A stretch of 24,279 bases of DNA from a virus (Duplodnaviria > Heunggongvirae > Uroviricota > Caudoviricetes): IMG/VR virus record IMGVR_UViG_3300045988_060429. One strand, written 5' to 3'. The position numbers were made by a program, and so were the translations under genes. The notes below the pieces were generated by a model. That model was given only the letters and a program-made list of their open reading frames with translations, did no database searches and was not told the DNA's origin. Below are positions 1,278-20,865 of the stretch, piece by piece (the stretch's first letter is position 1; each line of letters opens with the position of its first letter).

Positions 1278-1318
1278 GAGTAGATTATGCATGATGAATT
1301 TGATGGGGTTTGAATACT

Positions 1319-1344
1319 GCCGCCAACTATGGCGGCTTTATTTT
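1319..1344 (+). terminator. rho-independent terminator upstream of the terminase genes
   Basis: Stem GCCGCCA / TGGCGGC with loop ACTA, followed by TTTATTTT. Confidence 0.6.
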
Positions 1345-1351
1345 GCATGGT

Positions 1352-1388
1352 ACTATTACCACAACGGTAACTATTACCACGGTGGTTA
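1352..1388. promoter_or_regulatory. direct repeat ACTATTACCAC x2 containing the dyad TTACC-ACAAC-GGTAA
   Basis: ACTATTACCAC at 1352-1362 and 1370-1380. TTACCACAACGGTAA at 1356-1370, with an imperfect second copy TTACCACGGTGGTTA at 1374-1388, directly upstream of the terS start. Confidence 0.5.
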
Positions 1389-1984
1389 TGATGCCTGCTG
1401 AACCTAAAACCTATAAACGCAAATCAACGCAATTTAAGCCACTAACAGCAATGCAGGAGGCTTATTGCCAGTCATACATCAAAACGCCTGAAAACCAGAC
1501 TCAGGCAGCGATTAACGCAGGATTCTCCCCAAATACAGCGGCAGTTAAAGCCAGTGTCATGATGCGCGATGAACGCATTCAAAAACGGATTGCCGAGTTG
1601 ATGGAGGAGCGCAACAAACGAATGCGCGTCAGTGCTGATTACGTTCTCATGCGCCTGGTGGAGATCGACCAGATGGACGTGATCGACATCCTCAACGACG
1701 ATGGGAGCCTTAAGCCAATCCGCGAGTGGCCGAAAATCTGGCGCACTACGCTTAGTGGCTTTGATCTGTCATCGACCATCATGAACATGAACGAGGATTC
1801 GATAGAGACAATCCTCAAAAAAATTAAATGGCCTGACAAGGTGAAGAACCTCGAACTGATTGGTAAGCACGTCGACGTCAACGCATTCAAAGAACGTCTG
1901 GATGTTAATGTGAATGTGACAATTGCTGATCGCATAGCAGCAGCCAGGAAGCGACTCAAAGAACGTCAGGATGGCAATCAGTGA
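1388..1984 (+). CDS. terminase small subunit
   Basis: Segment KPLTAMQEAYCQSYIKTPENQTQAAINAGFSPNTAAV matches the helix-turn-helix region typical of TerS. Start is ATG 1388 or 1391 (GGTGG upstream). The track's 1310 start would run through the terminator and repeats. Confidence 0.75.
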   Translation: MMPAEPKTYKRKSTQFKPLTAMQEAYCQSYIKTPENQTQAAINAGFSPNTAAVKASVMMRDERIQKRIAELMEERNKRMRVSADYVLMRLVEIDQMDVIDILNDDGSLKPIREWPKIWRTTLSGFDLSSTIMNMNEDSIETILKKIKWPDKVKNLELIGKHVDVNAFKERLDVNVNVTIADRIAAARKRLKERQDGNQ

Positions 1985-3456
1985 CAGATACAGCGTTATC
2001 TCCTGAAGAGCAGTTAATCGAGGATATTGCAGGGTTCACTCACGATCCGCTTGGCTATGCCCTCTATGCGTTCCCGTGGGGGGAAGAGGGGACTGAACTG
2101 GCACATGCTACTGGTCCAAGAAGCTGGCAGAGGTGGATGCTTGACACTGTTGGCAAGCACCTCAGAAATCCAGATACACGCCATCAGCCACTGATGATTG
2201 CAGTTTCTTCAGGCCACGGAATCGGGAAAAGCGCAGGTATCTCCATGTTGCTGAACTGGGGAATGTCCACTTGCGAAGACTGCAAAGCAGTAGTCACTGC
2301 CAACACTGAAAATCAGTTGCGCACCAAAACTTGGCCAGAAGTGATTAAGTGGGCAAACCTGTCCATCACGAAAGACTGGTTCTCGACCCCGGCAACAGCG
2401 ATGTACAGCAATGATCCGGGGCACGATAAGCGCTGGCGCGCTGATGCTATACCGTGGTCTGAGCATAACACCGAGGCATTCGCCGGGCTGCACAACGAGC
2501 GTAAGCGGATTATCGTGGTATTCGACGAAGCGTCTAATATTGCTGATAAGGTTTGGGAGGTTGCCGAAGGTGCGCTTACTGACGAAGACACCGAAATCAT
2601 TTGGGTAGCGTTCGGAAACCCGACTCGTAACACCGGGCGATTCCGTGAATGTTTCCGCAAATACAAACACCGCTGGGTCACAAAGCAGATCGATAGCCGA
2701 ACCGTAGAGGGAACCAACAAAGAGCAGATCCAAAAATGGATTGAAGACCACGGTGAGGATAGCGACTTCGTTAAAATCCGTGTGCGCGGCATATTCCCTG
2801 ATGCATCTGAATTGCAGTTTATCCCTACCGGTCTTACTGACGAGGCAATGAAACGGGTGGTAACTGCTGCGCAGGTGGCACATGCTCCGGTGATAATCGG
2901 TGTTGACCCGGCATATTCAGGCGTTGATGACGCGGTGATATACCTGCGGCAGGGGCTACACAGTAAGGTGCTATGGACTGGTAACAAGACCACCGACGAT
3001 CTGATTATGGCGAAGCGTATCGCTGACTTTGAAGACCAGTATCAGGCTGACGCGGTGTTCATCGACTTCGGTTACGGAACCGGGCTGAAGTCAATCGGTG
3101 ACGGCTGGGGGCGCACATGGCAACTTGTTCCGTTCGGTGGCGCGTCTACTGACCCGCAGATGCTCAACAAGCGTGGGGAGATGTTCAACTCATGCAAGAC
3201 ATGGCTGAGGCTGGGCGGCATGCTGGATGACCAGGAAACAGCGGACGATCTGTCGGCGGCAGAGTACAAAGTTCGAGTGGACGGTAAAATCGTTATCGAA
3301 CCGAAGGAAGATATCAAGGAGCGGCTTGGGCGTTCTCCGGGGAAAGGCGATGCGTTATTGCTGACGTTTGCTTTCCCTGTGTCGAAACGCCTGCGAATTC
3401 CCGGGCAGCAGAACCAGCAAGGCAAGGCCATCACAGATTACGATCCCTATGCTTAA
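1981..3456 (+). CDS. terminase large subunit
   Basis: 491 aa, GTG start overlapping the terS stop (GTGA). Walker-A-like SSGHGIGKSAG near the N-terminus. Position after terS. Confidence 0.85.
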   Translation: MTDTALSPEEQLIEDIAGFTHDPLGYALYAFPWGEEGTELAHATGPRSWQRWMLDTVGKHLRNPDTRHQPLMIAVSSGHGIGKSAGISMLLNWGMSTCEDCKAVVTANTENQLRTKTWPEVIKWANLSITKDWFSTPATAMYSNDPGHDKRWRADAIPWSEHNTEAFAGLHNERKRIIVVFDEASNIADKVWEVAEGALTDEDTEIIWVAFGNPTRNTGRFRECFRKYKHRWVTKQIDSRTVEGTNKEQIQKWIEDHGEDSDFVKIRVRGIFPDASELQFIPTGLTDEAMKRVVTAAQVAHAPVIIGVDPAYSGVDDAVIYLRQGLHSKVLWTGNKTTDDLIMAKRIADFEDQYQADAVFIDFGYGTGLKSIGDGWGRTWQLVPFGGASTDPQMLNKRGEMFNSCKTWLRLGGMLDDQETADDLSAAEYKVRVDGKIVIEPKEDIKERLGRSPGKGDALLLTFAFPVSKRLRIPGQQNQQGKAITDYDPYA

Positions 3457-3495
3457 TCCGCTGGTGGGGATAATGTCGTTGATATCCTCTGGTGA

Positions 3496-3530
3496 GGATA
3501 AAACAAAGCCAGCTCATCGGCTGGCTGTTT
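3496..3530. terminator. hairpin terminator between convergent terL and the minus-strand gene
   Basis: Stem AGCCAGC / GCTGGCT (3507-3526). The minus-strand side has a T-rich run (TTGTTTTATCC); the plus-strand side has only GTTT. Confidence 0.55.
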
Positions 3531-3542
3531 GTGACATGTCAC
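3531..3542. repeat. perfect 12-bp palindrome GTGACATGTCAC, copy 2
   Basis: Exact string at 3531-3542, 4 bp from the terminator stem and 5 bp from the stop of the minus-strand gene. Confidence 0.9.
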
Positions 3543-3546
3543 GGTG

Positions 3547-3903
3547 TTATTGCTCGCTTAACTTCTGCTTCAGCAAGTAACCTTCGAGCATCCAGATTTT
3601 GTTTACAGCATTCTGCCGGGCAATCTTCCGACCAATTTCTGCATCAAAATTTTCCGGACTTGCACAGGCACTCTCTCCGGTGACGGTGAAGCCATTCTTC
3701 AGTACCAATACGCAGAAAGTCAGGAGGTCTGTAGATTTATGCGCTGTCCATGAATCGCCAACGCCCATATTGGCAGCACGAATGCCGTCATAAGCAGTAA
3801 AGAAATGCTCTTCAAGAATGATGCTTTCGATATATTGAGGCGTAACTCGCGGAGCGGTTTTGCCTTTCTCAACGATTTCTTTTTCGATTTGCTGGTCGTT
3901 CAT
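3547..3903 (-). CDS. conserved phage hypothetical protein (118 aa)
   Basis: ATG preceded by AAGGTGAG. Compact protein with a terminator downstream. It feels like a widespread small enterophage family but I cannot name it reliably. Confidence 0.55.
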   Translation of the reverse strand: MNDQQIEKEIVEKGKTAPRVTPQYIESIILEEHFFTAYDGIRAANMGVGDSWTAHKSTDLLTFCVLVLKNGFTVTGESACASPENFDAEIGRKIARQNAVNKIWMLEGYLLKQKLSEQ

Positions 3904-3913
3904 AATCTCACCT

Positions 3914-3938
3914 TAAAAAAATGCCCGGCGAACCGGGC
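3914..3938 (-). terminator. rho-independent terminator/attenuator just upstream of the 118-aa gene
   Basis: On the minus strand: stem GCCCGG / CCGGGC with loop TTCG, then ATTTTTTT. The SD and ATG of the 118-aa gene follow immediately. Confidence 0.5.
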
Positions 3939-4012
3939 GAACTGGAAGCAATGAGTTATGCCTTCCGTGGCTGTACTGGTTTACAGCATGAAGTCATCGC
4001 AATGGCGTCCTG

Positions 4013-4058
4013 CTGTAAAAAGGGCGGTGATAGTCCTTCAAGGGAAACCATCACCGCC
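4013..4058 (-). terminator. terminator-like hairpin downstream of the tRNA
   Basis: On the minus strand: 9-bp stem GGCGGTGAT / ATCACCGCC with an 18-nt loop, followed by CTTTTTAC. Confidence 0.4.
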
Positions 4059-4101
4059 AAGCCCCTGGAACTTCTGGCATCACGGTCCTTAGGCGTGATT
4101 C

Positions 4102-4178
4102 TGGCGTGGCATGCAGGATTCGAACCTGCGACCAACCGCTTAGAAGGCGGTTGCTCTGTCCAACTGAGCTAATGCCAC
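4102..4178 (-). tRNA. tRNA-Arg, anticodon UCU (argU-like)
   Basis: Reverse complement folds by hand into a cloverleaf: acceptor GTGGCAT / ATGCCAC, D-stem GCTC / GAGC, anticodon stem ACCGC / GCGGT with loop CTTCTAA (U33, anticodon TCT, A37), T-arm GCAGG-TTCGAAT-CCTGC, discriminator G and encoded CCA. Confidence 0.85.
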
Positions 4179-4500
4179 AACGCTGAGAGCACTTAGCCTG
4201 TTAAGGCGCCACACTTTGTCGCGGCTCCATAAATGCTCTCATCGTTGTACCCTCGTCTCTTCCGAGGAGTCACACCGAATCGCCGGGATGGTGAATCCCC
4301 GTGCGCGGAATAAAACCGCTCGACTTGCACATTCCGGCTACCTGGTTCGTTTGCCCGAGCAAGGGAGGGTGCCCCTTAAACGTATCCAGACCGCTATCGG
4401 CGCATGTGCCATACGCCGTACTGCTCAAAATAAAAGCTAACTCCACCTGTTCAATTTAACGACAAGCCAGTCAGGTTAGTAACCGGAATGAACTCTTTGG

Positions 4501-4515
4501 TTACCTGAAAGGTAA
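4501..4515. promoter_or_regulatory. dyad TTACC-TGAAA-GGTAA upstream of the portal operon
   Basis: Exact 15-mer, identical to the copy at 23269-23283. The shared block extends to TTACCTGAAAGGTAATA, and CATATGTGGTT follows in both places. Confidence 0.5.
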
Positions 4516-4605
4516 TAATTTGTGCGTTAAATGTCAACTACCTACGATAAATAAATCATATGTGGTTAAATTGGTAATAATTTAATTGCGTACGGAGTCA
4601 TTGAT

Positions 4606-4812
4606 ATGTGCATGGGTAGCTCACCATCAGTGCCTGCAACACCAGAAGTTCAGGCAGCACCACAGGAGCAGGATGCCGCCGTTGTTGATGCCCGCGACGA
4701 AGAAACTCGTCGCCGTCGCGCTGCTGCTGGTCGTAGTTCTACGCTGCTTACCGGTTCTCAGGGCGACACATCAACCGCTAATACCAGCGGTAAAACGCTG
4801 CTTGGTCAGTAA
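4606..4812 (+). CDS. hypothetical small protein (68 aa, low complexity)
   Basis: Its initiation region CGGAGTCATTGATATG is nearly identical to that of the portal gene (CGGAGTCATTGAAATG), which favours this frame over the overlapping 4586-4825 ORF. Confidence 0.4.
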   Translation: MCMGSSPSVPATPEVQAAPQEQDAAVVDARDEETRRRRAAAGRSSTLLTGSQGDTSTANTSGKTLLGQ

Positions 4813-4826
4813 CCGGAGTCATTGAA

Positions 4827-5138
4827 ATGGCGGAAACAACTAAAGAGCGATTGAACAAACAGTTCGCACAACTTGAAAGCGAGCGTCAGTCGTTCGAGCC
4901 GCACTGGCGCGAGTTGAGTGATTACATCAACCCGCGTGGTTCCCGCTTTCTGACTTCTGAGGTCAACCGTAACGATCGACGCAATACACGCATTATTGAT
5001 TCGACCGGGACTATGGCGGCGCGCACTCTCGCCAGCGGCATGATGTCAGGCATCACAAGCCCCGCGCGTCCGTGGTTTCGCCTGGCTACGCCAGATCCTG
5101 AAATGATGGATTATGGCCCTGTTAAGTTGTGGCTTTAG
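4827..5138 (+). CDS. portal/head-tail connector protein, N-terminal segment ending at an in-frame TAG
   Basis: Same frame as 5154-6506. Reading through TAG at 5136-5138 gives one protein of about 559 aa. Confidence 0.6.
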   Translation: MAETTKERLNKQFAQLESERQSFEPHWRELSDYINPRGSRFLTSEVNRNDRRNTRIIDSTGTMAARTLASGMMSGITSPARPWFRLATPDPEMMDYGPVKLWL

Positions 5139-5153
5139 GCGGGGCAGAACCGC

Positions 5154-6506
5154 ATGAACGATATGTTCAATAAGTCGAATCTCTACCAGTCTCTTCCGCA
5201 GTTATACGGAAGCCTCGGCACATACAGCACTGGTGCAATGGCGGTGCTGGAGGATGACGAGGACATCATTCGCACAATGCCATTCCCGATAGGCAGTTAC
5301 TACCTGGCTAACTCACCTCGTGGCAGTGTGGACACCTGTTTTCGCAAGTTCTCTATGACTGTTCGTCAGCTTGTTCAGGAGTTCGGGCTAAATAACGTCA
5401 GCGAATCCGTAAAAAGCATGTGGGAAAGCGGCACCTACGAGAAGTGGATTGAAGTGATGCATTCGGTTTACCCGAACATTGACCGCGATACATCGAAGCT
5501 GGATAGCAAGAACAAGCCATTCAAATCGGTTTATTACGAGGTTGGTGGCGATAACGACAAGTTGTTGCGTGAGTCCGGATTCGATGAGTTTCCAATTATG
5601 GCTCCGCGCTGGGAAGTTAACGGCGAAGATGTTTATGGATCATCATGCCCGGGTATGCTGGCGCTTGGATCTGTTAAGGCATTGCAGCTTCTTCAGAAGC
5701 GCAAGTCGCAGTTGATTGATAAAGCCACCAATCCGCCGATGGTTGCTCCGACTTCCCTCAAGAATCAGCGTGCCTCCCTTCTTCCTGGCGACATCACGTA
5801 TATCGATCAGATTACTGGTCAGGATGGTTTCAGGCCTGCTTATCTGGTTAACCCCAGTACAGCAGATTTGGTGGCAGACATTCAGGACACTCGTCAAATC
5901 ATTAACAGCGCCTACTTTGTCGATCTGTTCATGATGTTGCAGAACATCAATACCCGCTCGATGCCTGTTGAAGCGGTGATCGAAATGAAAGAAGAAAAAC
6001 TTCTGATGTTGGGGCCGGTTCTGGAGCGTCTGAACGACGAATGTCTTAATCCTCTCATTGACCGCTCTTTCTCGATGATGGTGCGTAAAAACATGCTGCC
6101 GCCACCGCCAGACGTGATGGAAGGTATGCCCCTGAAGGTCGAATACATTTCCGTCATGGCTCAGGCGCAGAAGTCTATCGGCCTGTCCAGTCTGGCGTCC
6201 ACGGTTAACTTCATTGGTCAACTTGTGCAAGCGAAACCAGAAGCTATCGACAAACTCAACGTTGATCAGGCGATCGATGCATTCGCTGATATGTCCGGAG
6301 TGTCTCCAACCGTCATTGTTCCGCAGGAACAGGTTGAGCAGGCTCGCCAGCAACGGGCACAGCAACAACAGCAGCAACAAATGATGGCGATGGGGATGGC
6401 GGCGGCACAGGCTGCCAAGACGCTAAGCGAAGCTAAAACTTCGGATCCGAGTGTTTTGTCAGCTATGGCGAATGCAGTTAGTGGTCAGGGTGGGCAATCA
6501 CAATGA
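5154..6506 (+). CDS. portal/head-tail connector protein, C-terminal segment
   Basis: The Q/A/M-rich C-terminal tail (QARQQRAQQQQQQQMMAMGMAAAQAA) strongly resembles the tail of T7 gp8 as I remember it. Lies between terminase and scaffold. Confidence 0.7.
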   Translation: MNDMFNKSNLYQSLPQLYGSLGTYSTGAMAVLEDDEDIIRTMPFPIGSYYLANSPRGSVDTCFRKFSMTVRQLVQEFGLNNVSESVKSMWESGTYEKWIEVMHSVYPNIDRDTSKLDSKNKPFKSVYYEVGGDNDKLLRESGFDEFPIMAPRWEVNGEDVYGSSCPGMLALGSVKALQLLQKRKSQLIDKATNPPMVAPTSLKNQRASLLPGDITYIDQITGQDGFRPAYLVNPSTADLVADIQDTRQIINSAYFVDLFMMLQNINTRSMPVEAVIEMKEEKLLMLGPVLERLNDECLNPLIDRSFSMMVRKNMLPPPPDVMEGMPLKVEYISVMAQAQKSIGLSSLASTVNFIGQLVQAKPEAIDKLNVDQAIDAFADMSGVSPTVIVPQEQVEQARQQRAQQQQQQQMMAMGMAAAQAAKTLSEAKTSDPSVLSAMANAVSGQGGQSQ

Positions 6507-6799
6507 CAGATTACGAAGACGATCAACTGAAAGAAGAAAACGCCCGTAAGCAACGTGACATGGCGCAGCGTGAAATTGATGACATTCGCTTTGTCATGAG
6601 CAGTGAACAGGGGCGTCGCGTTGTCTGGTCGGTGCTGGAGAAAGGCCGTGTGTTTTCCGCTATCTCACCGATGGACGCTATGGCAATGGCATTTAATGAG
6701 GGGCAACGCAATCTGGCGCTGGAACTGTTTCAGCGCGTTATGGCGCATTGCCCTGAACAGTATTTGAAGATGGCCAAAGAGGCCAGTGAACAGGAGTGA
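6503..6799 (+). CDS. hypothetical small head-module protein (98 aa)
   Basis: ATGA overlap with the portal stop, so probably translationally coupled. Confidence 0.55.
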   Translation: MTDYEDDQLKEENARKQRDMAQREIDDIRFVMSSEQGRRVVWSVLEKGRVFSAISPMDAMAMAFNEGQRNLALELFQRVMAHCPEQYLKMAKEASEQE

Positions 6800-6801
6800 T
6801 C

Positions 6802-7497
6802 ATGAATTTATTTGAGCGTTTGCTGTATCGCCGTCTTTGCAATGAGCAACCAGTCGATGGTGGAGCAGCTCCGGCTGCGTCAGAACCATCAGCGCCTGCA
6901 GGTGATAACCATGCTCCAGTTGGTGATCCATCACAACAGGAAGGTGATAAGCCACAACCTGTTGCTGATGGCGATAAACCTGCTGATGACAAAAAGCCTG
7001 AAAACGATAAGCAGGATGAAAAAAAGGACGGCAATAAACCAGAGGGTGCGCCTGAGAAGTACGAGTTTCAGGCTGCCGAAGGCGTAGAGCTGGATACAGA
7101 AGCGTTGAAGGAATTCGAGCCTGTGGCGCGAGAACTTAACCTGACCAACGAGCAAGCGCAAAAGCTGGTTGATGCTTATCCGAAGATTCTGGCAGGTGTG
7201 CAGCAGCGCCAGGCAGAAGCCTGGCAGAAAACAACCGAGCAGTGGGCTGCTGATGTAAAAGCTGACAAAGAAATCGGTGGCGACAAGTTGATTTCTAACC
7301 TTAGCGCCGCACAGCGTGCGCTTGACCAGTTCGGGACACCTGAACTCAAAGAATATCTGAACACCACCGGGCTGGGTAATCACCCTGATCTGGTCAAAAC
7401 GTTCGTGAAAATCGGAAAGGCGATGTCTGAAGATGGCATGGTCACCGGTGGTAATGAAGGCCAGCGTAGTGCGGCCGAAGTGCTCTATGGCAAATAA
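6802..7497 (+). CDS. scaffolding protein (putative)
   Basis: ATG at 6802 after AGGAG. Acidic, Pro/Ala-rich low-complexity N-terminal half and helical C-terminal half, immediately upstream of the capsid gene. Confidence 0.55.
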   Translation: MNLFERLLYRRLCNEQPVDGGAAPAASEPSAPAGDNHAPVGDPSQQEGDKPQPVADGDKPADDKKPENDKQDEKKDGNKPEGAPEKYEFQAAEGVELDTEALKEFEPVARELNLTNEQAQKLVDAYPKILAGVQQRQAEAWQKTTEQWAADVKADKEIGGDKLISNLSAAQRALDQFGTPELKEYLNTTGLGNHPDLVKTFVKIGKAMSEDGMVTGGNEGQRSAAEVLYGK

Positions 7498-7505
7498 GAG
7501 AGGAA

Positions 7506-8498
7506 ATGACAATGGCTGTTAAAGGCTTAACTGCGCTGACGCTGGCTGACTGGGGTAAGCGCGTCGATCCAAACGGGAAAGTCGATAAGATTATCGAGCT
7601 TCTCGGTCAAACTAACCCGATCCTTCAGGATATGCCTTTTGTCGAAGGGAACCTTCCTACCGGACACCGAACCACCATTCGTTCTGGTTTACCTTCAGCT
7701 ACCTGGCGTTTGCTGAACTATGGCGTACAGCCAAGCAAATCAACCACAGTGCAGGTAACCGATTCCGTGGGCATGCTGGAAACCTATGCTGAAGTCGATA
7801 AGTCACTGGCTGATCTGAACGGTAATACCGCCGAATTCCGCCTGTCTGAAGACCGCGCATTTATTGAAGCGATGAATCAGCAGATGGCGCAGACGTTGTT
7901 TTATGGTGATTCCAGCGTTAACCCTCAGCAGTTTATGGGACTGTCCTCCCGCTATTCCAGCCTGTCTGCGGGTAATGCTCAGAACATCATTGATGCTGGT
8001 GGCACGGGTACAGATAACACCTCAATCTGGTTAGTGGTGTGGGGCGAAAACACCGTGCATGGCATCTTCCCGAAAGGGCAGAAGGCTGGCATCCAGATGG
8101 AAGATAAAGGCCAGGTGACACTGGAAGATGCGAATGGCGGCAAGTACGAAGGCTACCGTACCCATTACAAATGGGACAACGGACTTGCTCTGCGTGACTG
8201 GCGTTATGTTGTTCGCATTGCAAACATCGATGTCAGCAATCTTTCAGAACCTTCCTCTGCCGCAAATATTGCGAAGTTGATGGTTAAAGCACTGCATCGC
8301 ATTCCAAATCGTGGCATGGGTCGCCCGGTGTTCTACATGAACCGCACTGTAGGCCAGGCTCTTGATCTGCAATCTCTGGAGAAAACATCTCTGGCGATCA
8401 GCGTAAAAGAGACAGAAGGCGAGTGGTGGACTTCATTCCGTGGTGTACCAATCCGTGAAACTGATGCGCTTCTGGAAACAGAAGCCCGCGTGGTGTAA
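7506..8498 (+). CDS. major capsid protein (putative)
   Basis: 330 aa, strong SD, position after the scaffold, followed by a stable stem-loop. Assigned by position and size, not by a recognised motif. Confidence 0.65.
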   Translation: MTMAVKGLTALTLADWGKRVDPNGKVDKIIELLGQTNPILQDMPFVEGNLPTGHRTTIRSGLPSATWRLLNYGVQPSKSTTVQVTDSVGMLETYAEVDKSLADLNGNTAEFRLSEDRAFIEAMNQQMAQTLFYGDSSVNPQQFMGLSSRYSSLSAGNAQNIIDAGGTGTDNTSIWLVVWGENTVHGIFPKGQKAGIQMEDKGQVTLEDANGGKYEGYRTHYKWDNGLALRDWRYVVRIANIDVSNLSEPSSAANIAKLMVKALHRIPNRGMGRPVFYMNRTVGQALDLQSLEKTSLAISVKETEGEWWTSFRGVPIRETDALLETEARVV

Positions 8499-8514
8499 CG
8501 CCTGTTATTAACCT

Positions 8515-8534
8515 GTGGGTCGTAACAGACCCAC
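8515..8534 (+). other. stem-loop after the capsid gene (mRNA-stabilising or processing hairpin)
   Basis: Stem GTGGGTC / GACCCAC with loop GTAACA. There is no U-tract, so it is not a canonical terminator. Confidence 0.4.
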
Positions 8535-8549
8535 TAATGGAGAAAGAAG

Positions 8550-8987
8550 ATGATCACCGACAAACTGTTGATGTTCTCCGAAGCTCAGGCGGTTACGAAT
8601 ACCGCGGCTTCTACTGACGTAATCGATCTCGGTCCAATTGACGGAAAACGTCGTGATATCGGCGTGGGTTACCCGCTTGAGTTTTGGGCGCTGGTTAACA
8701 CAGCCGCCGCGGCAAGCGGTGATGCAACTGTAAACATCCAGTTGCAGACGAGTGAGAATAACAGCTCATGGACCACTATTTATGATAGTGGCGCACTGGC
8801 AAAGACCGCCATGACAGCAGGTAAACGAGTTGTTTCTGCAAAGGTGCCTGCCGGTGTTCAGCGATATCTGCGTGTTAACTACTCCGTCGCAACTGGCCCA
8901 CTAACGGCTGGCGAATTCACTGCTGGTATCAGTCTTGATGTTGATGCCAATACGCCGTATCCGATCCGCTCAAAAGTAACTGGTTAA
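8550..8987 (+). CDS. hypothetical virion protein (145 aa)
   Basis: GGAG-type SD. Ser/Thr/Ala-rich sequence that looks beta-rich. Located in the head module. Confidence 0.5.
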   Translation: MITDKLLMFSEAQAVTNTAASTDVIDLGPIDGKRRDIGVGYPLEFWALVNTAAAASGDATVNIQLQTSENNSSWTTIYDSGALAKTAMTAGKRVVSAKVPAGVQRYLRVNYSVATGPLTAGEFTAGISLDVDANTPYPIRSKVTG

Positions 8988-8997
8988 GGTGATATCG

Positions 8998-9333
8998 ATG
9001 TCAGGTGAGAAACCAAGATACCGCGTTCTGCGCCTCTCTCATATCCATAACACACTGTGGCCGGAGGGGGCAGAAATCGAATACGAAGGTGAGCCTGGTA
9101 GCGCACTGGAACCTGTTAACGATGCAGCCAGACAGGCAAAAGCAAAGGTAGCAGGAAAGGTGTCTATGGCAGCAACCAGCACCAAAATCATCAACGATGT
9201 GTCAGATGATGGTGAACTGGATAAGCTCCGTGAAGAGTACGAATTGCTCTTTAACGAGAAGCCACACCATAACGCCAAAGCCGAAACGCTCCGCGAGAAG
9301 ATCGCAGATAAGCGTAAAGAACTGGGCGTGTAA
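8998..9333 (+). CDS. hypothetical head-module protein (about 111 aa)
   Basis: ATG at 8998 after AAGGTG (the track's 8989 is GTG). Charged and helical. Confidence 0.5.
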   Translation: MSGEKPRYRVLRLSHIHNTLWPEGAEIEYEGEPGSALEPVNDAARQAKAKVAGKVSMAATSTKIINDVSDDGELDKLREEYELLFNEKPHHNAKAETLREKIADKRKELGV

Positions 9334-9349
9334 GCCTCGCGAATCCGAC

Positions 9350-9371
9350 AAGGGGCTTCGGCCCCTTTATT
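9350..9371 (+). terminator. hairpin with UUCG tetraloop; possible partial terminator
   Basis: Stem AAGGGGC / GCCCCTT with loop TTCG, then TATT and the next gene's AGGAG. Confidence 0.4.
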
Positions 9372-9383
9372 GCAGGAGTGTAT

Positions 9384-9707
9384 ATGGAACTCGTAAACCT
9401 CAAAACCGGCACTGACAGCTACCAGGATGAGAGCGGAGAAACCAGAACTCGCGATGAATACCCGTGGGGGCTGTGCATCACTCTTAATAACGACACATTG
9501 AATAAGCTGAAGGCGCAACCTCAGGGCGTCGGAACAGAAGTGATGATAACTGCAAAGGCTGTTATTCGAGGCCTGTCTGCCAGAGAAACTGACGATGGTG
9601 TTAATCGCAGCGCCGATCTGCAGATCACTGATATGGCGATCGCTCCTGTTTCCGGGGATGTAGAAAAATCAGCGGCTGAAACTCTGTACGGCAATGGGGG
9701 TGAGTAA
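9384..9707 (+). CDS. small virion protein (about 107 aa), possible capsid decoration protein
   Basis: ATG at 9384 after AGGAG. Size is near the roughly 12-kDa capsid staple protein I recall for epsilon15. Weak, memory-based analogy. Confidence 0.45.
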   Translation: MELVNLKTGTDSYQDESGETRTRDEYPWGLCITLNNDTLNKLKAQPQGVGTEVMITAKAVIRGLSARETDDGVNRSADLQITDMAIAPVSGDVEKSAAETLYGNGGE

Positions 9708-10312
9708 TGGCCTCTGTAGTAGAGATCTGTAATCGTGCGCTGTCCAATATTGGCAACAGCCGCAGCATTAACAGCCTGACGGAAGCCAGCAAGGAAGCGG
9801 GGGAATGTTCGCTGCACTTTGAGGCCTGCCGTGATGCTGTGCTTTCTGATTTTGACTGGAACTTTGCTACCAAACGCGTGGCGCTTGCAGATACGAGCAA
9901 TCCACCGCCTGACTGGGAATATGCGTATCAGTACCCGTCCGATTGTCTGCGCATTACTGAAATTATGCTTCCTGGTGTACGCAATCCAACAGCAGCAATG
10001 CGTGTTCAGTACGAAGTTGGTGCAGACACCAACGGAACAGGAAAATTGATCTACACAGACCAGCCGCAGGCATGGCTCAAGTATGTCTCTCGCGTTACAG
10101 ATGTGAACATGTTTGATGCCATTTTTATGGAGGCGTTGGCCTGGCGTCTTGCGGCAGCTATTAACATGGCGCTGACTGGGAATGCAGACCTCGGTACGTT
10201 TGCCCTCAATATGTACAATCGCGTGATTCTTAGTGCTGGCTCGCATAGCCAGAATGAATCACAGGAACCACAGCCACCGGTTGACGAGTTTACCATTGCG
10301 AGGTTGTCCTGA
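9707..10312 (+). CDS. tail tubular protein A-like (gp11-like adaptor)
   Basis: 201 aa. The N-terminus (VVEICNRALSNIGNSRSINSLTE...) resembles the start of T7 gp11 in pattern. Sits immediately before the large nozzle-sized protein. Confidence 0.5.
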   Translation: MASVVEICNRALSNIGNSRSINSLTEASKEAGECSLHFEACRDAVLSDFDWNFATKRVALADTSNPPPDWEYAYQYPSDCLRITEIMLPGVRNPTAAMRVQYEVGADTNGTGKLIYTDQPQAWLKYVSRVTDVNMFDAIFMEALAWRLAAAINMALTGNADLGTFALNMYNRVILSAGSHSQNESQEPQPPVDEFTIARLS

Positions 10313-12783
10313 TGGCTATCAGTTGGATCCAGCCCAGCTTTGCCGGTGGTGAGATTGGACCGTCGTTGTACGGTCGTATCGACATGGCGAAGTACCAGGT
10401 GGCATTGCGCAAGTGCGATAACTTTATCGTGCGGCAGTATGGCGGCGTTGAGAATCGACCTGGTACGCGTTTTGTCGGTGCCGCCAAATACCCAAATCGG
10501 AAATGCCGCCTGATCCCGTTCCAGTTCTCGACGGTTCAGACCTATGCTCTGGAGTTCGGGCACCAGTACATGCGCGTTATCAAAGATGGTGCGTTGGTGC
10601 TGAACAGCAGCAATGTTATTTATGAAATTGCCACGCCATATACTGAAGCCGATCTGTTCCGAATTAAATTCACGCAAAGCGCCGACGTGCTTACGCTGGT
10701 TCACCCGGCATACCCGCCGAAAGAGTTGCGCCGCTACGCGCATGACAACTGGCAACTGGTTGATGTGGTAACGAAGAACGGGCCATTTGAAGATATCAAT
10801 ATTGACGAGTCAGTGACGGTTTATGCCAGCGCCAGCACCGGGACAATTACGTTAACGGCAAGCGCCTCTATTTTTGGCGCGGAGCAGGTAGGCAAATTGT
10901 TCTATCTGGAACAGCCTGCAGTGGATTCAGTGCCGGTATGGGAAACCAGTAAGAGTACGTCGATTGGCGATATTCGCCGTGCAGACAGTAACTACTATCG
11001 CGCCGTTACAGCAGGCAAAACAGGCACTTTGCGCCCTTCGCATACAGAAGGCACATCATGGGATGGCTGGGGCGGATCCGGTGATGATGATACTGGCATT
11101 GAGTGGGAATATCTGCACAGTGGTTTTGGCATTGCCCGTATCACTGCTGCAAATGGAACTACTGCAACTGCCGAGGTGATTTCCTATATCCCTTCGCAGG
11201 TCGTTGGCGAGGATAATGCCAGCTATAAATGGGCTAAATATGCCTGGAACAGTGTTAATGGTTATCCTGGCACTGTTGTTTATTATCAACAACGTCTTTA
11301 CTTCGCCGCATCGACTGCGTTCCCTCAGACTATCTGGGCCAGCCGTACCGGGGATTATAAGGATTTTGGCAAAAGCAATCCTACGCAGGATGACGACAGA
11401 ATTATCTACACCTATGCCGGGCGTCAGGTTAATGAGATCCGTCACCTGATTGATGTTGGCTCTCTGGTGGCGCTGACTTCCGGAGGTGAGTACGTCATCA
11501 CCGGCGACCAGAACAAAGTGTTAACCCCATCATCATTTGCATTCAGCTCTCAGGGATCAAATGGCTCAAGCAACGTCCCACCAATTGCTGTGGCGAATAT
11601 TGCTCTGTTCGTCCAGGAGAAAGGCAGTGTTGTCCGTGATCTGGCCTACTCATTCGATGTTGACGGCTATCAGGGGAACGACCTGACCATCCTTGCTAAT
11701 CATCTTTTTCAGAAGCACAGCATCGTTGACTGGTGCTTCTCTATTGTCCCTTACTCCAGCGCCTTCTGCATTCGTGATGACGGTAAATTACTGGTGATGA
11801 CCTATTTGCGTGATCAACAGGTTTTTGCATGGGCACCACAGTCCAGTACCGGAAAATATGAAAGCACATGCAGTATCAGCGAAGGAAATGAAGATGCGGT
11901 GTATTTCGTCGTTAACCGAACCGTTAACGGGCAAACAGTGAGATACATCGAGCGGCTGTCCAGCCGTTTATTTATCAGCGATGAAGATGCTTTCTTTGTT
12001 GATTCTGGCCTTAGCTATGATGGAAGAAATACGTCTGACAGAACGATGACCATCACTGGTGGTTCTGGTGAATGGGATTACCGTGCGGAATATACAATCA
12101 GTGTTTCTGGTGGTGCGTACTTCACCAGTAGTGATGTCGGCGCGCAACTACAGTTCCCTTATACCGGAACTGATCCTGATACTGGCGATGAAGTGTCAAA
12201 AGAATTACGTTGCGACATTATTTCTGTAACCAGCAATACCGCTGTAGTGGTTCGTGCTAACAGGAACGTCCCGCCATCCCTCAGGAGTGTGGCCACCACG
12301 AACTGGCAGATGGCGCGCCGGACATTTGGAGGCCTGTCTCATCTTGAAGGCCAGGCCGTAAACATTCTCTCTGATGCGAACGTGGAACCACAGAAAGTGG
12401 TTTCCGGAGGTGCCGTCACGCTGGAATCTCCGGGGGCTGTAGTGCACATCGGCCTGCCAATAACTGCTGAATTCGAAACACTGGATATCAACATTAACGG
12501 ACAGGAAACGCTGCTGGACAAAAAACTGGTGATCCCGTCCGTTACTCTGGTTGTGAATGCCAGTCGCGGCATCTGGGCGACTACGCCCGGCGGTAAATGG
12601 TACGAATATCCACAGCGTGAATTCGAGTTCTACGATGATCCTGTTGATGACGCTACCGGAAAAGTAGAAGTGAAACTGGACAGTAACTGGGGCAAAAACG
12701 GACGTGTAAGAATCCGTCAGCTTGACCCGTTGCCGCTGTCTGTTCTTGCCGTTATTCCTCGCCTTACTGTTGGTGGGTTCTGA
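10312..12783 (+). CDS. tail tubular protein B-like (nozzle), 823 aa
   Basis: Size and position correspond to T7 gp12. ATGA overlap with the previous gene. No motif recognised. Confidence 0.5.
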   Translation: MAISWIQPSFAGGEIGPSLYGRIDMAKYQVALRKCDNFIVRQYGGVENRPGTRFVGAAKYPNRKCRLIPFQFSTVQTYALEFGHQYMRVIKDGALVLNSSNVIYEIATPYTEADLFRIKFTQSADVLTLVHPAYPPKELRRYAHDNWQLVDVVTKNGPFEDINIDESVTVYASASTGTITLTASASIFGAEQVGKLFYLEQPAVDSVPVWETSKSTSIGDIRRADSNYYRAVTAGKTGTLRPSHTEGTSWDGWGGSGDDDTGIEWEYLHSGFGIARITAANGTTATAEVISYIPSQVVGEDNASYKWAKYAWNSVNGYPGTVVYYQQRLYFAASTAFPQTIWASRTGDYKDFGKSNPTQDDDRIIYTYAGRQVNEIRHLIDVGSLVALTSGGEYVITGDQNKVLTPSSFAFSSQGSNGSSNVPPIAVANIALFVQEKGSVVRDLAYSFDVDGYQGNDLTILANHLFQKHSIVDWCFSIVPYSSAFCIRDDGKLLVMTYLRDQQVFAWAPQSSTGKYESTCSISEGNEDAVYFVVNRTVNGQTVRYIERLSSRLFISDEDAFFVDSGLSYDGRNTSDRTMTITGGSGEWDYRAEYTISVSGGAYFTSSDVGAQLQFPYTGTDPDTGDEVSKELRCDIISVTSNTAVVVRANRNVPPSLRSVATTNWQMARRTFGGLSHLEGQAVNILSDANVEPQKVVSGGAVTLESPGAVVHIGLPITAEFETLDININGQETLLDKKLVIPSVTLVVNASRGIWATTPGGKWYEYPQREFEFYDDPVDDATGKVEVKLDSNWGKNGRVRIRQLDPLPLSVLAVIPRLTVGGF

Positions 12784-13247
12784 TGATCGATGTTCAAATT
12801 ATTCCCGCAACCGAAGAGCATCTTCAGATGATTTTGCCGGATGTTCGTCAGGCTGATATTGACGAACTGTATGCGGTATCACTGATGACTACCGAAGATG
12901 CGCTGCGTGTTGGTCTGCGTACTGCGACTATGGCCTGGTCAGGATTTGCGAACGGAGAACTGGTAACCATGTTTGGCGTATCTCCGGCGTCAATGATCGG
13001 TGGCAATGGTACGCCCTGGCTGGTCGGAACCAGCCGTATCGAAAAATATCAGAAGACATTTCTTCGCCACTGCCGCCCTGTATTGCAGCAGATGCTGGCA
13101 GTTTATCCGCGTCTGGAAAACTACGTCGACGAGCGAAACCATGTTGCCAAAGCATGGCTGCACTGGCTTGGATTCAGGCTTGAAGAAGCCGCGCCTTATG
13201 GTGCTCTTGGTCTTAATTTCCACAGATTTCACATGGAGAGAAAATAA
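12783..13247 (+). CDS. internal virion protein (gp13-like position), 154 aa
   Basis: Overlapping stop/start with the upstream gene. Assigned by position only. Confidence 0.45.
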   Translation: MIDVQIIPATEEHLQMILPDVRQADIDELYAVSLMTTEDALRVGLRTATMAWSGFANGELVTMFGVSPASMIGGNGTPWLVGTSRIEKYQKTFLRHCRPVLQQMLAVYPRLENYVDERNHVAKAWLHWLGFRLEEAAPYGALGLNFHRFHMERK

Positions 13248-13813
13248 TGTGTAACCCAGCCATCGCTTTGGTTGCCGTCACAGTGGCATCCACAGCCGCG
13301 TCAATGTACAGCCAGAGCAAGCAGGCAAAATACCAGTCAGCCATAGCTGATCGGAATGCTGAAATTGCTGAAGCTCAGGCACAGGATTCAATCAATCGTG
13401 GGAATATTGAAGCGGATCAGCGTCGTCGTGAAATGCGTCAACGCTCAGGCACTGCGGCGGCCACTATGGGGGCTACCGGTGCGGAATTAAGTAGCGGAAC
13501 AGCTCTTGACGTTTTTGCGGATAATGCTCAGTTCGGCACTCTTGATGCGTTAACGACAGTGAATAATGCTCAGCGTGAGGCATATGGGTATCAGGTTCAG
13601 GGAATGAATGCTCAGGCACAGGGGGCTGCTGCTCAGTCGGCTGCTAAATCATCGATGACCAGTACTTTGTTAACGGCACCACTAAAAGCATACGGTGCAT
13701 ATAAGTTGGGTGGCGGAAGTATCAATCCGATTAGTAAGCAAGGAAACACGCCAATGTTATCTAACTCAGGTTTTATGAATTCTGACTCCCGATTCAAAAT
13801 AGGAGGTTATTGA
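13247..13813 (+). CDS. internal core protein (gp14-like), 188 aa
   Basis: N-terminal hydrophobic helix (AIALVAVTVASTAAS) followed by an Ala/Gln-rich region, as in gp14-type ejection proteins. Confidence 0.5.
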   Translation: MCNPAIALVAVTVASTAASMYSQSKQAKYQSAIADRNAEIAEAQAQDSINRGNIEADQRRREMRQRSGTAAATMGATGAELSSGTALDVFADNAQFGTLDALTTVNNAQREAYGYQVQGMNAQAQGAAAQSAAKSSMTSTLLTAPLKAYGAYKLGGGSINPISKQGNTPMLSNSGFMNSDSRFKIGGY

Positions 13814-16560
13814 TGCCTGTTGTTCCTACTACATCCGGACGCCAGGTGCAAAGTCGTGGTGTGCAAACCGGTGGTTTTCAGACCTTCGATGTTCCTCAAG
13901 CAGGTCAGGTGCTGGCGAATGTCGCAGATCAGTATGCGGTGGCATATGGTGAAGCCAGGCAGAAAGCGAATGTTGCTATGGCCCAGGAGGCGTTACTGCA
14001 ATTTAACCAATTTGCAGATGACCAGATTAACAACCCTGAAAATGGGCTGATTTCTAAACAGGGTAAAAACGCTCTTGGTCAGAGTGACGCTGTTATGAAA
14101 AATATGCAGGAAAGGGCTCAGGCATTATTAGGCTCAATTCCTGAAAGTGAGGAAAGGAATAAATTATCCTTTCAACTCCAGCAGTCTATGCAGTCTTATT
14201 ACAATCAGGCACGTCGATATGAAGTTGGGCAGTTTCAGCAATTCCAAGATCAAACGTATTTGTCAGGAAATGCATTGGCTGTCACTCAGTCTGCGGGGCT
14301 ATATAGCGATAACCAAGCATTTGTCGATTTAGCCAAGCAGCGATTTGAATCTATTGATCAATACGCTGATGCGCATGGGCTTCCTGATGGGTGGCGTGTT
14401 CAGCAGAAAACTCAGCTCAAGGAACAAATGGGGCAGCAAGCATGGATAGGAAATATCGCTCAAAAATACAACGAGTTTCTTCAGGTTAATGGAGAGCCAG
14501 GGGATCTTGATGGTGTGAGTCGTGCAATATCACATGGTAATTCATTGGATGCTCGTGGTTTACGTAATAATAACCCTGGTAATATTGAAGCGAGCAAATC
14601 TAACCCGTGGGAAGGTCAGATCGGTAGCGATGGACGTTTTGCAACGTTTGCTACCCCTGAGCATGGAATCCGCGCGTTGGGTAAAAATATGTTGTCTTAC
14701 CAGCGTCAAGGCTATGACACCGTTAGCGAGATTGTTAATCGCTATGCTCCGGCTAGTGATGGTAATAATACTGATGCTTATATTAGGGCATTGTGTAGTG
14801 AGCTTGGTGTTGGGGAGAATGATCAGCTTGATATCTCTAACCCAAAGACACTAGCTGCTTTATGTGCTGGGATTATTAAACACGAAAATGGCAGTATGCC
14901 TTATAGCACCGAACAGCTTGAAACTGGTATCTCGGCAGCCCTTGGTCTAACTAACCTTGATTCACCTAAGCGTTATACGGGCAATGCGGCATTTGACGCT
15001 ATGAGCCCTCAAATGCAAATACAGGCATTGAGGCAGGCTAATGAGCTGAGAAATCAGTACCGCCAGCAGTATGCGGACCAGCTTAGCACCGTAGTTAAAG
15101 ATGCATATTCAGCCCTTGATGAAGGATTGAAACCTGAGAAGTTACCTTCTGAGGACGATTTTATCCGGGCCAATGGTCCGCGCATTGGCGCTATGAAGTG
15201 GAAGGATATGCAGGCGCAGATACAATATGGAGGTGTCATTGGTGCCGCTAAAGACCTCACTCCAGAAGGACGACAAGACATTCTTGAACGTTTACGTCCA
15301 CAGGATCCAAACGCTCCTGGATTTGCAGCTAACCAGCAACGCTGGGAGAAAATGCAGGCCAAATTTAAAGAGATGGATAGGGAGTGGGAGATTCAGCAGG
15401 GAAGAAACAGGTTCGTGTCTTCAATGCAAAATAACTTCCCGCTGGACCCGAACGACAAAAACAATCAGGCAGCGGTAGACCGTTATTTCGCGCAGGATAT
15501 CGCGCCTTCGTTTTCCATATCTGATCCGCAGAGCATCAATACACTGGTCACCGTCACAACTAAAAGCGGCATGATACCAACTCAGGTTAAAACAATGCTT
15601 AACAGTGGAGCAACATCAAGAGATCCTGCGATGGTTGTCCCGATGGCAAAATTCTACGGTCAGTTATTTGATAATAATCCGGCGGCAGCGGCAACACTTG
15701 ATAAAAGTACGATGGCATTTTACGGCAAGGTTTACGATTATTCCCGCGCTGGCGTGCCGGAGGATAAGGCTGTTGATATGGCTTACAGCCAGGTGTTCCA
15801 ACAGGATGACCGAATGAAACAGATGCTTTCCACTGCCATGCGAGACAAAAAATATGTCGCGGCGAGGGCAACTGCTGCACAAAATAACGCCAGCAGTCTG
15901 ACTTCCTTTGGTTCGTGGTCTCCGGATATTACCGATCCAGGAAAATCAAATGCGGCCTATCAGCGAGATTACCAGACAATTTACGATGCTAACTTTGTAC
16001 AGACAGGTGGCGATGCAGAACAGGCTGAGAAAATGACCAATGCCATGATCAGAACCACCTGGGGAGTTTCTACAGTTAATGGCAAAGCAGAGGTTATGAA
16101 GTATGCACCTGAGGCATTGTACGGAGTAAATAATGGTGCTGGTAACTGGATACAGGGGCAGTGGGAGCAGGAAAAACGCGAGCTTAAATCAAAATCCTTT
16201 GGCGGTCCTCGCAGTGATACGGACTTAATACTTGTTTCTGATGGCCTTACGGCAAGGGATAGGAGTTATGCTGTTATGGTTTTACAGCCTGACGCAAACG
16301 GAGCGATAGAACCGAGAAATTATATTGGAGAAAATGGTCTCCCTGTTCGTTTCAAGCCGGATCAGCTGACATCTCCAATGTACAGGCAAACCATTCAGTT
16401 CCAGCAACAGCGTGTTGATGAGGCTAGAGTGCGGAGAGAAGGCAATCCGCTGCCGCAGTTCAGCAATAAAGATGGATATACTCCTCCAGATCTGACCAAA
16501 CCATTCGGTTATGGTTCAGCCAATTACCTTCCGAGCAATATATACGCAGGGGGCAAATAA
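13810..16560 (+). CDS. internal virion protein with a putative peptidoglycan-hydrolase-like domain, 916 aa
   Basis: Block RGLRNNNPGNIEASKSNPWEGQIGSDGRFATFATPEHGIRALGKNM...IIKHENG lies in a visibly AT-richer segment (about 14.1-15.0 kb). I associate this NNPGN block with virion-associated wall hydrolases, with moderate certainty. Confidence 0.6.
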   Translation: MMPVVPTTSGRQVQSRGVQTGGFQTFDVPQAGQVLANVADQYAVAYGEARQKANVAMAQEALLQFNQFADDQINNPENGLISKQGKNALGQSDAVMKNMQERAQALLGSIPESEERNKLSFQLQQSMQSYYNQARRYEVGQFQQFQDQTYLSGNALAVTQSAGLYSDNQAFVDLAKQRFESIDQYADAHGLPDGWRVQQKTQLKEQMGQQAWIGNIAQKYNEFLQVNGEPGDLDGVSRAISHGNSLDARGLRNNNPGNIEASKSNPWEGQIGSDGRFATFATPEHGIRALGKNMLSYQRQGYDTVSEIVNRYAPASDGNNTDAYIRALCSELGVGENDQLDISNPKTLAALCAGIIKHENGSMPYSTEQLETGISAALGLTNLDSPKRYTGNAAFDAMSPQMQIQALRQANELRNQYRQQYADQLSTVVKDAYSALDEGLKPEKLPSEDDFIRANGPRIGAMKWKDMQAQIQYGGVIGAAKDLTPEGRQDILERLRPQDPNAPGFAANQQRWEKMQAKFKEMDREWEIQQGRNRFVSSMQNNFPLDPNDKNNQAAVDRYFAQDIAPSFSISDPQSINTLVTVTTKSGMIPTQVKTMLNSGATSRDPAMVVPMAKFYGQLFDNNPAAAATLDKSTMAFYGKVYDYSRAGVPEDKAVDMAYSQVFQQDDRMKQMLSTAMRDKKYVAARATAAQNNASSLTSFGSWSPDITDPGKSNAAYQRDYQTIYDANFVQTGGDAEQAEKMTNAMIRTTWGVSTVNGKAEVMKYAPEALYGVNNGAGNWIQGQWEQEKRELKSKSFGGPRSDTDLILVSDGLTARDRSYAVMVLQPDANGAIEPRNYIGENGLPVRFKPDQLTSPMYRQTIQFQQQRVDEARVRREGNPLPQFSNKDGYTPPDLTKPFGYGSANYLPSNIYAGGK

Positions 16561-19500: not shown

Positions 19501-19949
19501 GTATCCAGCAGGGCGATGCTGCATTCTATCTTGGTGCGCTTGGCACGATTGCGCTTGGCTCAATGGTCTATATGATGAAACAGAAGTTAAGCGGTCGCGA
19601 TATCGACTACAGCTGGAATAACCTTGTGAAAGAGGGGATCGACCGGGGCGGAATGCTTGGCTGGCTCTCTGAGCCGCTGAATACCGTTGAGAACATAAGC
19701 GGCGGTAGGTTTGGTCTTGGCGCGATGTTTGGTGCGCCTCCGGTATCAAGGTTTCAGAGTCGTAATGCTATTGGTGCTTTACTTGGTCCTACCTTTGATC
19801 TTGGCGGTGATGCCGCGACGGTTGCGAATGGTGTGCTTAACGGAGAATTTGACAGCCAGCAAACCCACGCGGTCCGTAAAATGCTACCTTTTCAGAACCT
19901 GTGGGCGATATCACCGTTACTAAATAAAGTTGAAGAGCAGATGAAATAG
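16560..19949 (+). CDS. internal virion/DNA-ejection protein (gp16-like), 1129 aa
   Basis: Gly/Ala-rich hydrophobic segment (GGAGTISSLAMGMIDPVNVAAMFIPVGAVARGG...), long helical charged regions, and last position in the core-protein block. Confidence 0.6.
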   Translation: MPIYEQDPKELLGEDIQQIAAPDDSNFYMETPSLLSAVNPFTSDQRVQRSRQAAFRIDNTLGSFIASAPFSQFDRVEGYNPFDNDAADIKGYEDFADSFINSGSHEETMAIKHRIDKQRTDREYLSEMGGAGTISSLAMGMIDPVNVAAMFIPVGAVARGGSIAETAGRFALANAAGGGVSEAALQATQEARSPMESVSNVVVDALVGGILGAGAQLLSGPSAREAVVNSVGNHLRGMDSPQSIGAAQVFNTTLDQEQLAGLGLVNKTLSVTPAGRLAQSPSLVSRQINQQLAENNYFFAKNDEGLATFTAVETKIKQYDAMLYKQMEATRDAYQQYSKSVSARGVKRMNFIDFNEAVGMAMRRGDQSDIPEVSQAAARIRPIFETTKARMQELGILPEDIDVVTAKSYLPRIYKFDKILSDRTEFRGRIANWIQGISAKSADKAGQRIERINSLLKTAEESAPRADALASEIAEAEKWSGKKILLMEELDKRNKLISQETDTQARLTRIEKELAETSSEKLQARMMKESSDLKTRLDDIAQAKSELPVYQRHMELLDNPRKYRSELRRLQKRANSTTRLNASRERALKQMEPLSREEAEDAADEIVNKIIGAPSGLVPADIIPERLVGRAGFTKSRTLLIPDERIEDFLESDVNYIMESYLRQVAPEIELTAQFGRKDMGEQIRQVSEEYTRLIKEAKTPKRRAVLEKQREADIRDITAMRDRLLGTYGAPQDPRGFFVRAGRVARNINFLRLLGGMTVSAATDLMRPMMQHGLRKSLGPMVSMLKNMDSVKIATRDLREMAVGLDYVLSTRTKAIADLTDPYSRRSAAERGLNWMTQKFGNWTLMNQWNSALKSWSGMIVQSRILDAARQVSAGGTLSKSEMRKMAQVGINEDVLRRIGEQFGKHGEDMDGLLTGHSHLWDDRFAREIFQSAVLKDVDSVIVTPGVGDTPLFFSKEGWKMITQFKTFIFAQHNRVLVSGIQQGDAAFYLGALGTIALGSMVYMMKQKLSGRDIDYSWNNLVKEGIDRGGMLGWLSEPLNTVENISGGRFGLGAMFGAPPVSRFQSRNAIGALLGPTFDLGGDAATVANGVLNGEFDSQQTHAVRKMLPFQNLWAISPLLNKVEEQMK

Positions 19950-20390
19950 CTATTCACAATTAGTGATGGCGTATGTATCAAATATATTGCCATCACTAAA
20001 TACATACCTATACTCAATCTCTCCGCCAAGGTGAATAAATGCTTTCATTTGCCTGTTGGAGCAAATGCTCGATTTTGAATAATTTCGCATTACACTCTTT
20101 AATTTATTTTCTAAGGTTACATCACCATTATAAACTTTTGATAAATAGCTGTTGTTGTAATTAAGATGCGCTACAACTAAAAGTTTGTTTAGTATTGCAT
20201 TTATTGAAACAATAGACATATTATCATTCAATTTTATGGGAAGTGACTTTCCTGCTTCTGATGCGATTTTGTTTGCATGTGCACACATATCCTCATTTAT
20301 TAAATTCTTAAAACATATGTCGTTTGCAAACGAAAAAATTGGTAGGATAAACAAAACGGTAGCTGTAATAGCGTGCATCGGCTTAATCAT
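19950..20390 (-). CDS. secreted/periplasmic protein of unknown function, AT-rich (146 aa)
   Basis: N-terminal signal-peptide-like sequence MIKPMHAITATVLFILPIFSFA with a probable cleavage after SFA. The gene is visibly lower in GC than its neighbours. Confidence 0.5.
   Translation of the reverse strand: MIKPMHAITATVLFILPIFSFANDICFKNLINEDMCAHANKIASEAGKSLPIKLNDNMSIVSINAILNKLLVVAHLNYNNSYLSKVYNGDVTLENKLKSVMRNYSKSSICSNRQMKAFIHLGGEIEYRYVFSDGNIFDTYAITNCE
19961..20007. repeat. interleaved inverted repeats at the end of the late operon
   Basis: TAGTGATGGC (19961-19970) pairs with GCCATCACTA (19989-19998). GTATGTAT (19971-19978) pairs with ATACATAC (20000-20007). Confidence 0.6.
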
Positions 20391-20402
20391 TAGGTGACCT
20401 TT

Positions 20403-20852: not shown

Positions 20853-20853
20853 C

Positions 20854-20865
20854 GTGACATGTCAC
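20854..20865. repeat. perfect 12-bp palindrome GTGACATGTCAC, copy 3
   Basis: Exact string at 20854-20865, abutting the terminator stem at 20867. Confidence 0.9.

Follow-up and report, generated by a model that had tools for sequence, protein, structure and literature searches.

The portal (head-to-tail connector) gene of a phiV10/epsilon15-like (Uetakevirus) E. coli prophage, at positions 4827-6506 (plus strand) of the window, appears in the deposited letters as two pieces separated by an in-frame TAG codon, and this split portal is very probably not a real feature but a sequencing or assembly artefact. The window is the whole stretch of DNA analysed, 24,279 nucleotides long; it is one whole JGI/IMG metagenome-type contig and represents the late region of the prophage. 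In all likelihood the DNA itself has no TAG, and the codon reflects two Illumina base-calling errors at error-prone contexts, so that the portal would be one intact gene of 559 amino acids. The initial annotation had offered a sequencing error and a nonsense mutation making the prophage defective as the simplest readings, and had itself chosen neither; its account of gene identity, frame and tRNA is upheld, the sequencing error is favoured with high confidence by the polyphyly of the lesion, by a same-strain control (strain 602687) and, by analogy, by published error motifs, and the defective prophage is not supported.

The portal gene in the deposited letters

In the open reading frames of the window, the ATG at 4827 is followed by 103 sense codons and the TAG at 5136-5138, while the ATG at 5154, five codons past the TAG and in the same frame, opens a reading frame ending with the TGA at 6504-6506. 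Translation of 4827-6506 gave exactly one internal stop, confirming the earlier description of ORFs 4827-5138 and 5154-6506 as sharing a frame with the TAG as sole interruption. The read-through product has 559 amino acids, a length equal to that of the intact homologues, and this length together with matches to the Pfam family PF12236 (T7 gp8-type head-to-tail connector) bears out the earlier proposal of a T7-gp8-like portal of about 559 residues. The N-terminal piece covers profile positions 2-98 (E = 2e-34) and the C-terminal piece positions 105-488 (E = 5e-143), and an intact homologue covers positions 2-488 (E = 7e-187). The gene is 99.9% identical to the portal of the Combat2C1 prophage and 98.4% identical to phiV10 gp07. 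In the annotations of Combat2C1, phiV10, 2016C04-116, 602687 and S87, the portal is placed 3' of the terminase genes and 5' of the protease and major capsid genes. Among 5,426 complete genomes of E. coli, approximately 520 (about 10%) have a portal gene with at least 95% identity.

That the homologues might truly be two genes, a possibility raised in the initial annotation, is contradicted by all complete-genome and phage homologues examined, in each of which the portal is a single gene, 1680 nt long and annotated as such in the relatives. The comparison with intact homologues suggested earlier likewise returned an intact 559-aa portal with GAG at codon 104, the encoded residue being Glu in all intact relatives. 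Judged by these homologues, the portal is almost certainly best read as one ORF of 559 codons in which codon 104 is GAG and codon 106 is GTG. The interruption itself is confirmed for the deposited letters only, and the presence of the TAG in the DNA molecule is a separate question.

Prophage setting

In the window, genes for a DUF551 protein, the small and large terminase subunits and a gp49-like protein are followed by a tRNA-Arg gene, a 68-aa ORF and the portal gene; downstream of the portal lie genes for a Bbp19-like protein, the protease, the major capsid protein, a Bbp16-like cement protein and the tail and internal virion proteins, and then an accessory region. Both the gene order from the terminase genes to the major capsid gene and the 559-aa portal length are shared with phiV10/epsilon15-like phages (Uetakevirus; PF12236). 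For the ORFs at 1310-19949, from the terminase through the 1129-aa internal protein, lengths match the Combat2C1 annotation, and no decay of neighbouring phage genes was seen across this interval in comparison with Combat2C1. The window offers no evidence for a defective prophage.

The tRNA gene at 4102-4178 (minus strand) was identified by ARAGORN as tRNA-Arg(TCT) and is also annotated in Combat2C1, 2016C04-116, 602687 and S87. As it is the sole tRNA found by ARAGORN in the window, no amber suppressor tRNA was found there, in agreement with the earlier remark that the adjacent tRNA does not read UAG.

Two further regions differ from Combat2C1. The accessory region 3' of the 1129-aa gene (19950-22900) contains three ORFs of 146, 152 and 210 aa without Pfam matches and a BRO-N domain protein at 21928-22665 on the minus strand, whereas the equivalent region of Combat2C1 carries YafO-type toxin genes; the difference looks like typical moron-region mosaicism. 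Within the 1129-aa gene, a patch of approximately 240 nt (16873-17114) shows some 70 substitutions between nearly identical flanks and looks like a short recombinational replacement.

Differences from intact relatives

Only two bases distinguish the portal gene of the window from that of Combat2C1, the closest complete genome, whose prophage has an identical counterpart in NZ_OZ040973. These bases, G5136T and T5143G (plus strand), are 7 nt apart, and the portal differs from that of Combat2C1 at suspect bases only: codon 104 is TAG rather than GAG, with T5136 a probable miscall of G in the expected Glu104 codon, and codon 106 is GGG (Gly) rather than GTG (Val). Only short-read assemblies have the latter change. 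Across the initial 12,770 nt the window and Combat2C1 show four differences in total, the remaining two being at 883 and 3342.

The change at 3342 (T to G, plus strand) converts CCGGGT to CCGGGG and is synonymous, leaving the large terminase with Gly454. None of the 280 complete genomes with the segment has this change, which is probably one more Illumina miscall, the third in the contig, made in a GGGT context with the preceding base copied. The difference at 883 is an A-to-G transition (His76 to Arg in a 93-aa ORF at 657-938) that does not match the error signature, and it is probably a real SNP.

For the portal alleles, complete genomes were scanned using a 90-nt query carrying the window allele, with about 519 full-coverage E. 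coli records. Neither G5136T nor T5143G, singly or jointly, occurs in these approximately 519 genomes, none of which has fewer than two mismatches to the query, and a 76-mer with the reference allele is 100% identical in 404 of them. Stop alleles were also absent from the metagenome contigs retrieved by a degenerate pattern permitting every variant, as all 48 carry G, G and T.

Recurrence in other assemblies

Looked up by exact match, the N-terminal fragment of 103 aa occurs in 56 blocks of the collection on 35 contigs; five NCBI draft genomes are among the sources, as are several Logan and ENA assemblies. At seven loci the portal is split into 103 and 450 aa as in the window, and split versions of the gene, which 5-366-08 isolates also have, occur only in short-read assemblies. 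The window and loci L007, L008, L010, L011 and L012 share the hot-spot sequence TTTAGGCGGGG, with the variants TTTAAGCGGGG (giving TAA) in L006 and TTTAGGCGGTG in L009; across assemblies the lesion thus takes the form of TAG with GGG, TAA with GGG, or TAG alone. For the window's own 450-aa C-terminal product an exact look-up returned no gene, and a cluster look-up placed it on this contig only; a 36-mer of the window had no exact match among GTDB representative genomes or in IMG/VR. In GenBank, split entries named "head to tail connecting family protein" (KEJ74320.1, KEL69877.1, KEO35284.1 and OKT88362.1) have the identical 103-aa fragment with the same end codon, and in the NCBI drafts with such entries the fragment is followed by a second ORF of 450 aa as in the window, although these entries sit on prophage haplotypes other than that of the window.

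At least eight portal haplotypes carry the lesion, with 8 to 29 differences between them outside the hot spot. Besides the hot spot itself, no SNP is confined to the stop-bearing sequences, not even at the nearest variable sites (5066 and 5186-5195). The occurrence of the lesion on at least eight unrelated haplotypes with no linked marker implies that the same complex change arose independently many times, which, going by these haplotype comparisons, is to be expected from a systematic artefact and would be implausible for a pair of true substitutions.

Three contigs (L013-L015) terminate precisely at 5135/5136, as would be expected where an assembly graph has a branch that is not resolved. 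Contig breaks are also frequent in this part of the gene more generally, as illustrated by 76 N-terminal portal fragments (60 to 126 aa) that fall into one cluster.

Same-strain control

For one of the drafts with the split portal, LGMU01000102 (L008), the best complete-genome match is NZ_CP189657.1 of E. coli strain 602687 from Bangladesh. The draft record LGMU00000000 is from the same Bangladeshi strain 602687 and was sequenced on HiSeq 2000 at 109x and assembled by MaSuRCA (PMC5216030, Table 1); the HiSeq 2000 reads of the strain belong to PRJNA287625. LGMU01000102 carries TAG and GGG, while NZ_CP189657.1 carries GAG and GTG with an annotated 559-aa portal, and apart from these two bases the sequences agree over 19,313 aligned nucleotides. 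In strain 602687 the stop vanishes upon independent complete sequencing and is thus contradicted for one strain. A second draft with the lesion, LGMM of strain 300659 (L010), comes from the same HiSeq 2000/MaSuRCA study (PMC5216030), and no matching complete genome of this strain is available in the collection to serve as a second control.

Illumina error contexts at the site

The two substituted bases coincide with published error contexts. Allhoff et al. (2013, BMC Bioinformatics 14 S5:S1; PMC3622629) used Illumina data from human and B. subtilis to catalogue contexts in which the error is scored at the last base of the motif. One such context-specific error motif, TTGTGGCTTG, occupies 5127-5136 of the true sequence (plus strand), with its error position at 5136, and a second, GAGGCGGT (GNGGCGGT), occupies 5136-5143 (plus strand), with its error position at 5143. 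The two motifs overlap end to end, and the substituted bases are exactly their two error positions. Published error rates for these contexts are strongly directional: GTGGCTTG has 17.3% forward versus 0.4% reverse errors on HiSeq and 20.2% versus 1.2% on GAIIx, and GNGGCGGT has 19.2% versus 0.7% (PMC3622629), while the supplementary lists of the same study give 41.3% versus 0.2% for the 10-mer TTGTGGCTTG in the list matching HiSeq human data, 20.8% for it on GAIIx, and 17.8% forward versus 0.8% reverse for the 8-mer GAGGCGGT. GGGT, the context of position 3342, is the top-ranked 4-mer in Table 4 of that study (PMC3622629). When 19 published motifs, a list chosen after the site was seen, were counted on both strands over 12.77 kb, 13 positions qualified and two of the four differences fell on them (Fisher p = 6e-6).

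The direction of the changes is informative as well. Nakamura et al. (2011, NAR 39:e90; PMC3141275) described sequence-specific lagging dephasing downstream of GGC, which is compounded by two nearby GGCs and produces miscalls that for the most part match the one or two bases before them. Each of the four suspect substitutions copies its 5' neighbour, namely TT[G->T], GG[T->G], A[G->A] (at 5138 in L006) and GGG[T->G] at 3342, which amounts to a lagging-dephasing signature. With the context-specific errors of both studies (PMC3141275, PMC3622629) the site shares a GGC a few bases upstream, exact motifs with the error at the last base, recurrence across unrelated samples, consecutive errors on the same molecules, and assembly breaks. 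It differs in that the published errors are per-read rates of 17-41% in one read direction, whereas here the error stands in an assembly consensus, which is uncommon.

Based on these comparisons, the following sequence of events is proposed. The overlapping contexts TTGTGGCTTG and, directly after it, GAGGCGGT, each built around GGC, would cause Illumina sequencing-by-synthesis to dephase on forward-direction reads and to report the preceding base. The G after TT would then be called T, giving TAG, and the T after GG would be called G, giving GGG. As the errors are one-directional, a flip of the consensus would need strand imbalance or an assembler favouring erroneous k-mers, and should be rare; erroneous k-mers may occasionally win the assembly and enter the consensus, as shown for MaSuRCA on HiSeq 2000 and presumed for the JGI contig. 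The outcome would be a false amber codon and a false Val-to-Gly change. It is very probable, by analogy with the one same-strain control and the published motif statistics, that the same error process produced the letters of this contig.

Other lesions at the same spot

Two other kinds of lesion were observed at this position. Loss of C5140, which changes GAGGCGGT to GAGGGGT, results in a 109-aa fragment ending in LWLEGCRTA (L016:5418-5747, and L017, L018 and L019), the TGA of which overlaps the ATG at 5154 (ATGA) and is followed by a 450-aa ORF. This loss was identified in more than 227 contigs (262 blocks) with two haplotypes, mostly as one near-identical contig of about 25 kb from recent runs, the second haplotype being in a metagenome scaffold; SRR18503920, SRR28220726 and SRR28172243 are among the runs with the allele. 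No complete genome has this loss, the nearest being only 98.1% identical, and it may be either a real clonal frameshift or another artefact.

The complete genome of ETEC4075 (NZ_CP122652.1; L020:4001-4040) contains a heavily degraded copy of the prophage with a genuine 1.45-kb deletion, equivalent to 5136-6587 of the window, linking codon 103 of the portal with the Bbp19-like gene. The deletion shows GCTT(T) microhomology, and its left endpoint (5135/5136) is at the same base as the false stop, probably by coincidence. This deletion is the one piece of evidence from a long assembly for anything real at the site. Given this endpoint and the loss of C5140, some real fragility at 5136-5143 is conceivable.

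Alternative explanations

Under the first alternative, a real GAG-to-TAG nonsense mutation with a neighbouring missense change inactivated the portal and left a defective prophage unable to package DNA. The letters do stand in the deposited sequence, prophages decay, and ETEC4075 illustrates true degradation of the same gene. However, the identical two-base lesion lies on at least eight unrelated haplotypes that share no flanking marker, it is nearly the sole difference from an intact relative in two backgrounds, and it is gone in the complete sequence of strain 602687. In addition, both bases fall on published error motifs, no other gene of the window is decayed, and the allele is missing from the approximately 519 complete genomes. 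The polyphyly, the complete genome of 602687 and the sound state of the other genes thus weigh against the nonsense mutation and defective prophage of the initial annotation, which we consider quite improbable.

As the main residual alternative to an artefact, the site could be a true hot spot of mutation or recombination, in which, for example, polymerase dislocation near short runs or local DNA structure would repeatedly generate stop or frameshift alleles in vivo, possibly in a subpopulation within cultures. Within 8 nt there are G-to-T, G-to-A and T-to-G changes, the missing C5140 and, in a complete genome, one end of a deletion; dislocation mutagenesis likewise yields neighbour-copying substitutions, and the contigs that break off here point to mixed signals within samples. 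Nevertheless, the hairpin at the site is weak (5 bp, z = -1.5), no complete genome has the substitution alleles, not even that of 602687, whose HiSeq draft had them, and a base-for-base coincidence with instrument motifs obtained from human and B. subtilis data is not predicted by a biological process. Such a hot spot is therefore rated very unlikely, slightly below the nonsense mutation. It is equally hard to credit that 5136-5143 is truly hypermutable or fragile in phiV10-like prophages, yielding repeated portal-null alleles (amber, ochre, -1 frameshift, deletion endpoint), and that its match to the Illumina motifs is coincidental; if this were so, hosts would gain a recurrent route to lock the prophage in.

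Least probable of all, to the point of being negligible, is a real TAG that is decoded through a host amber suppressor or programmed readthrough, or bypassed by reinitiation at the ATG at 5154 to give a two-piece portal: the frame is kept across the stop and this ATG is only five codons downstream, but the window has no suppressor tRNA, the stop is not conserved in any complete-genome or phage homologue, Glu being present in all intact relatives, and the accompanying Val-to-Gly change would have no role. The truncated portal that the initial annotation expected from reinitiation loses its relevance should the DNA lack the stop.

Three other candidates were rejected. Escape from CRISPR self-targeting, with GAG at 5136-5138 as a type I-E PAM and the changes in the seed, does not require double or triple changes, and a 76-nt reference-allele query (E <= 5) against the 5,426 complete genomes gave no spacer-like hits but portal genes only, in a megablast search that needs a 28-nt exact word. 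A templated mutation from a quasi-palindrome was discarded, as the GCGGT/ACCGC hairpin is weak (z = -1.5) and, although T5143G would give 7 nt of complementarity to 5059-5065, nothing at that place templates G5136T. Mutagenesis of the DGR type does not fit because the affected bases are G and T, not A.

Implications

For data quality, these results flag one site, in a prophage family common in E. coli, that reproducibly gives false stop codons. Public short-read assemblies and protein databases hold the resulting split "head-to-tail connecting protein" entries as real proteins, and scans of prophages for pseudogenes or recoded stops will keep meeting the site. For the prophage, there is no case for a defective element, for suppression or for a split portal; its biology is little affected, and the portal is to be treated as intact.
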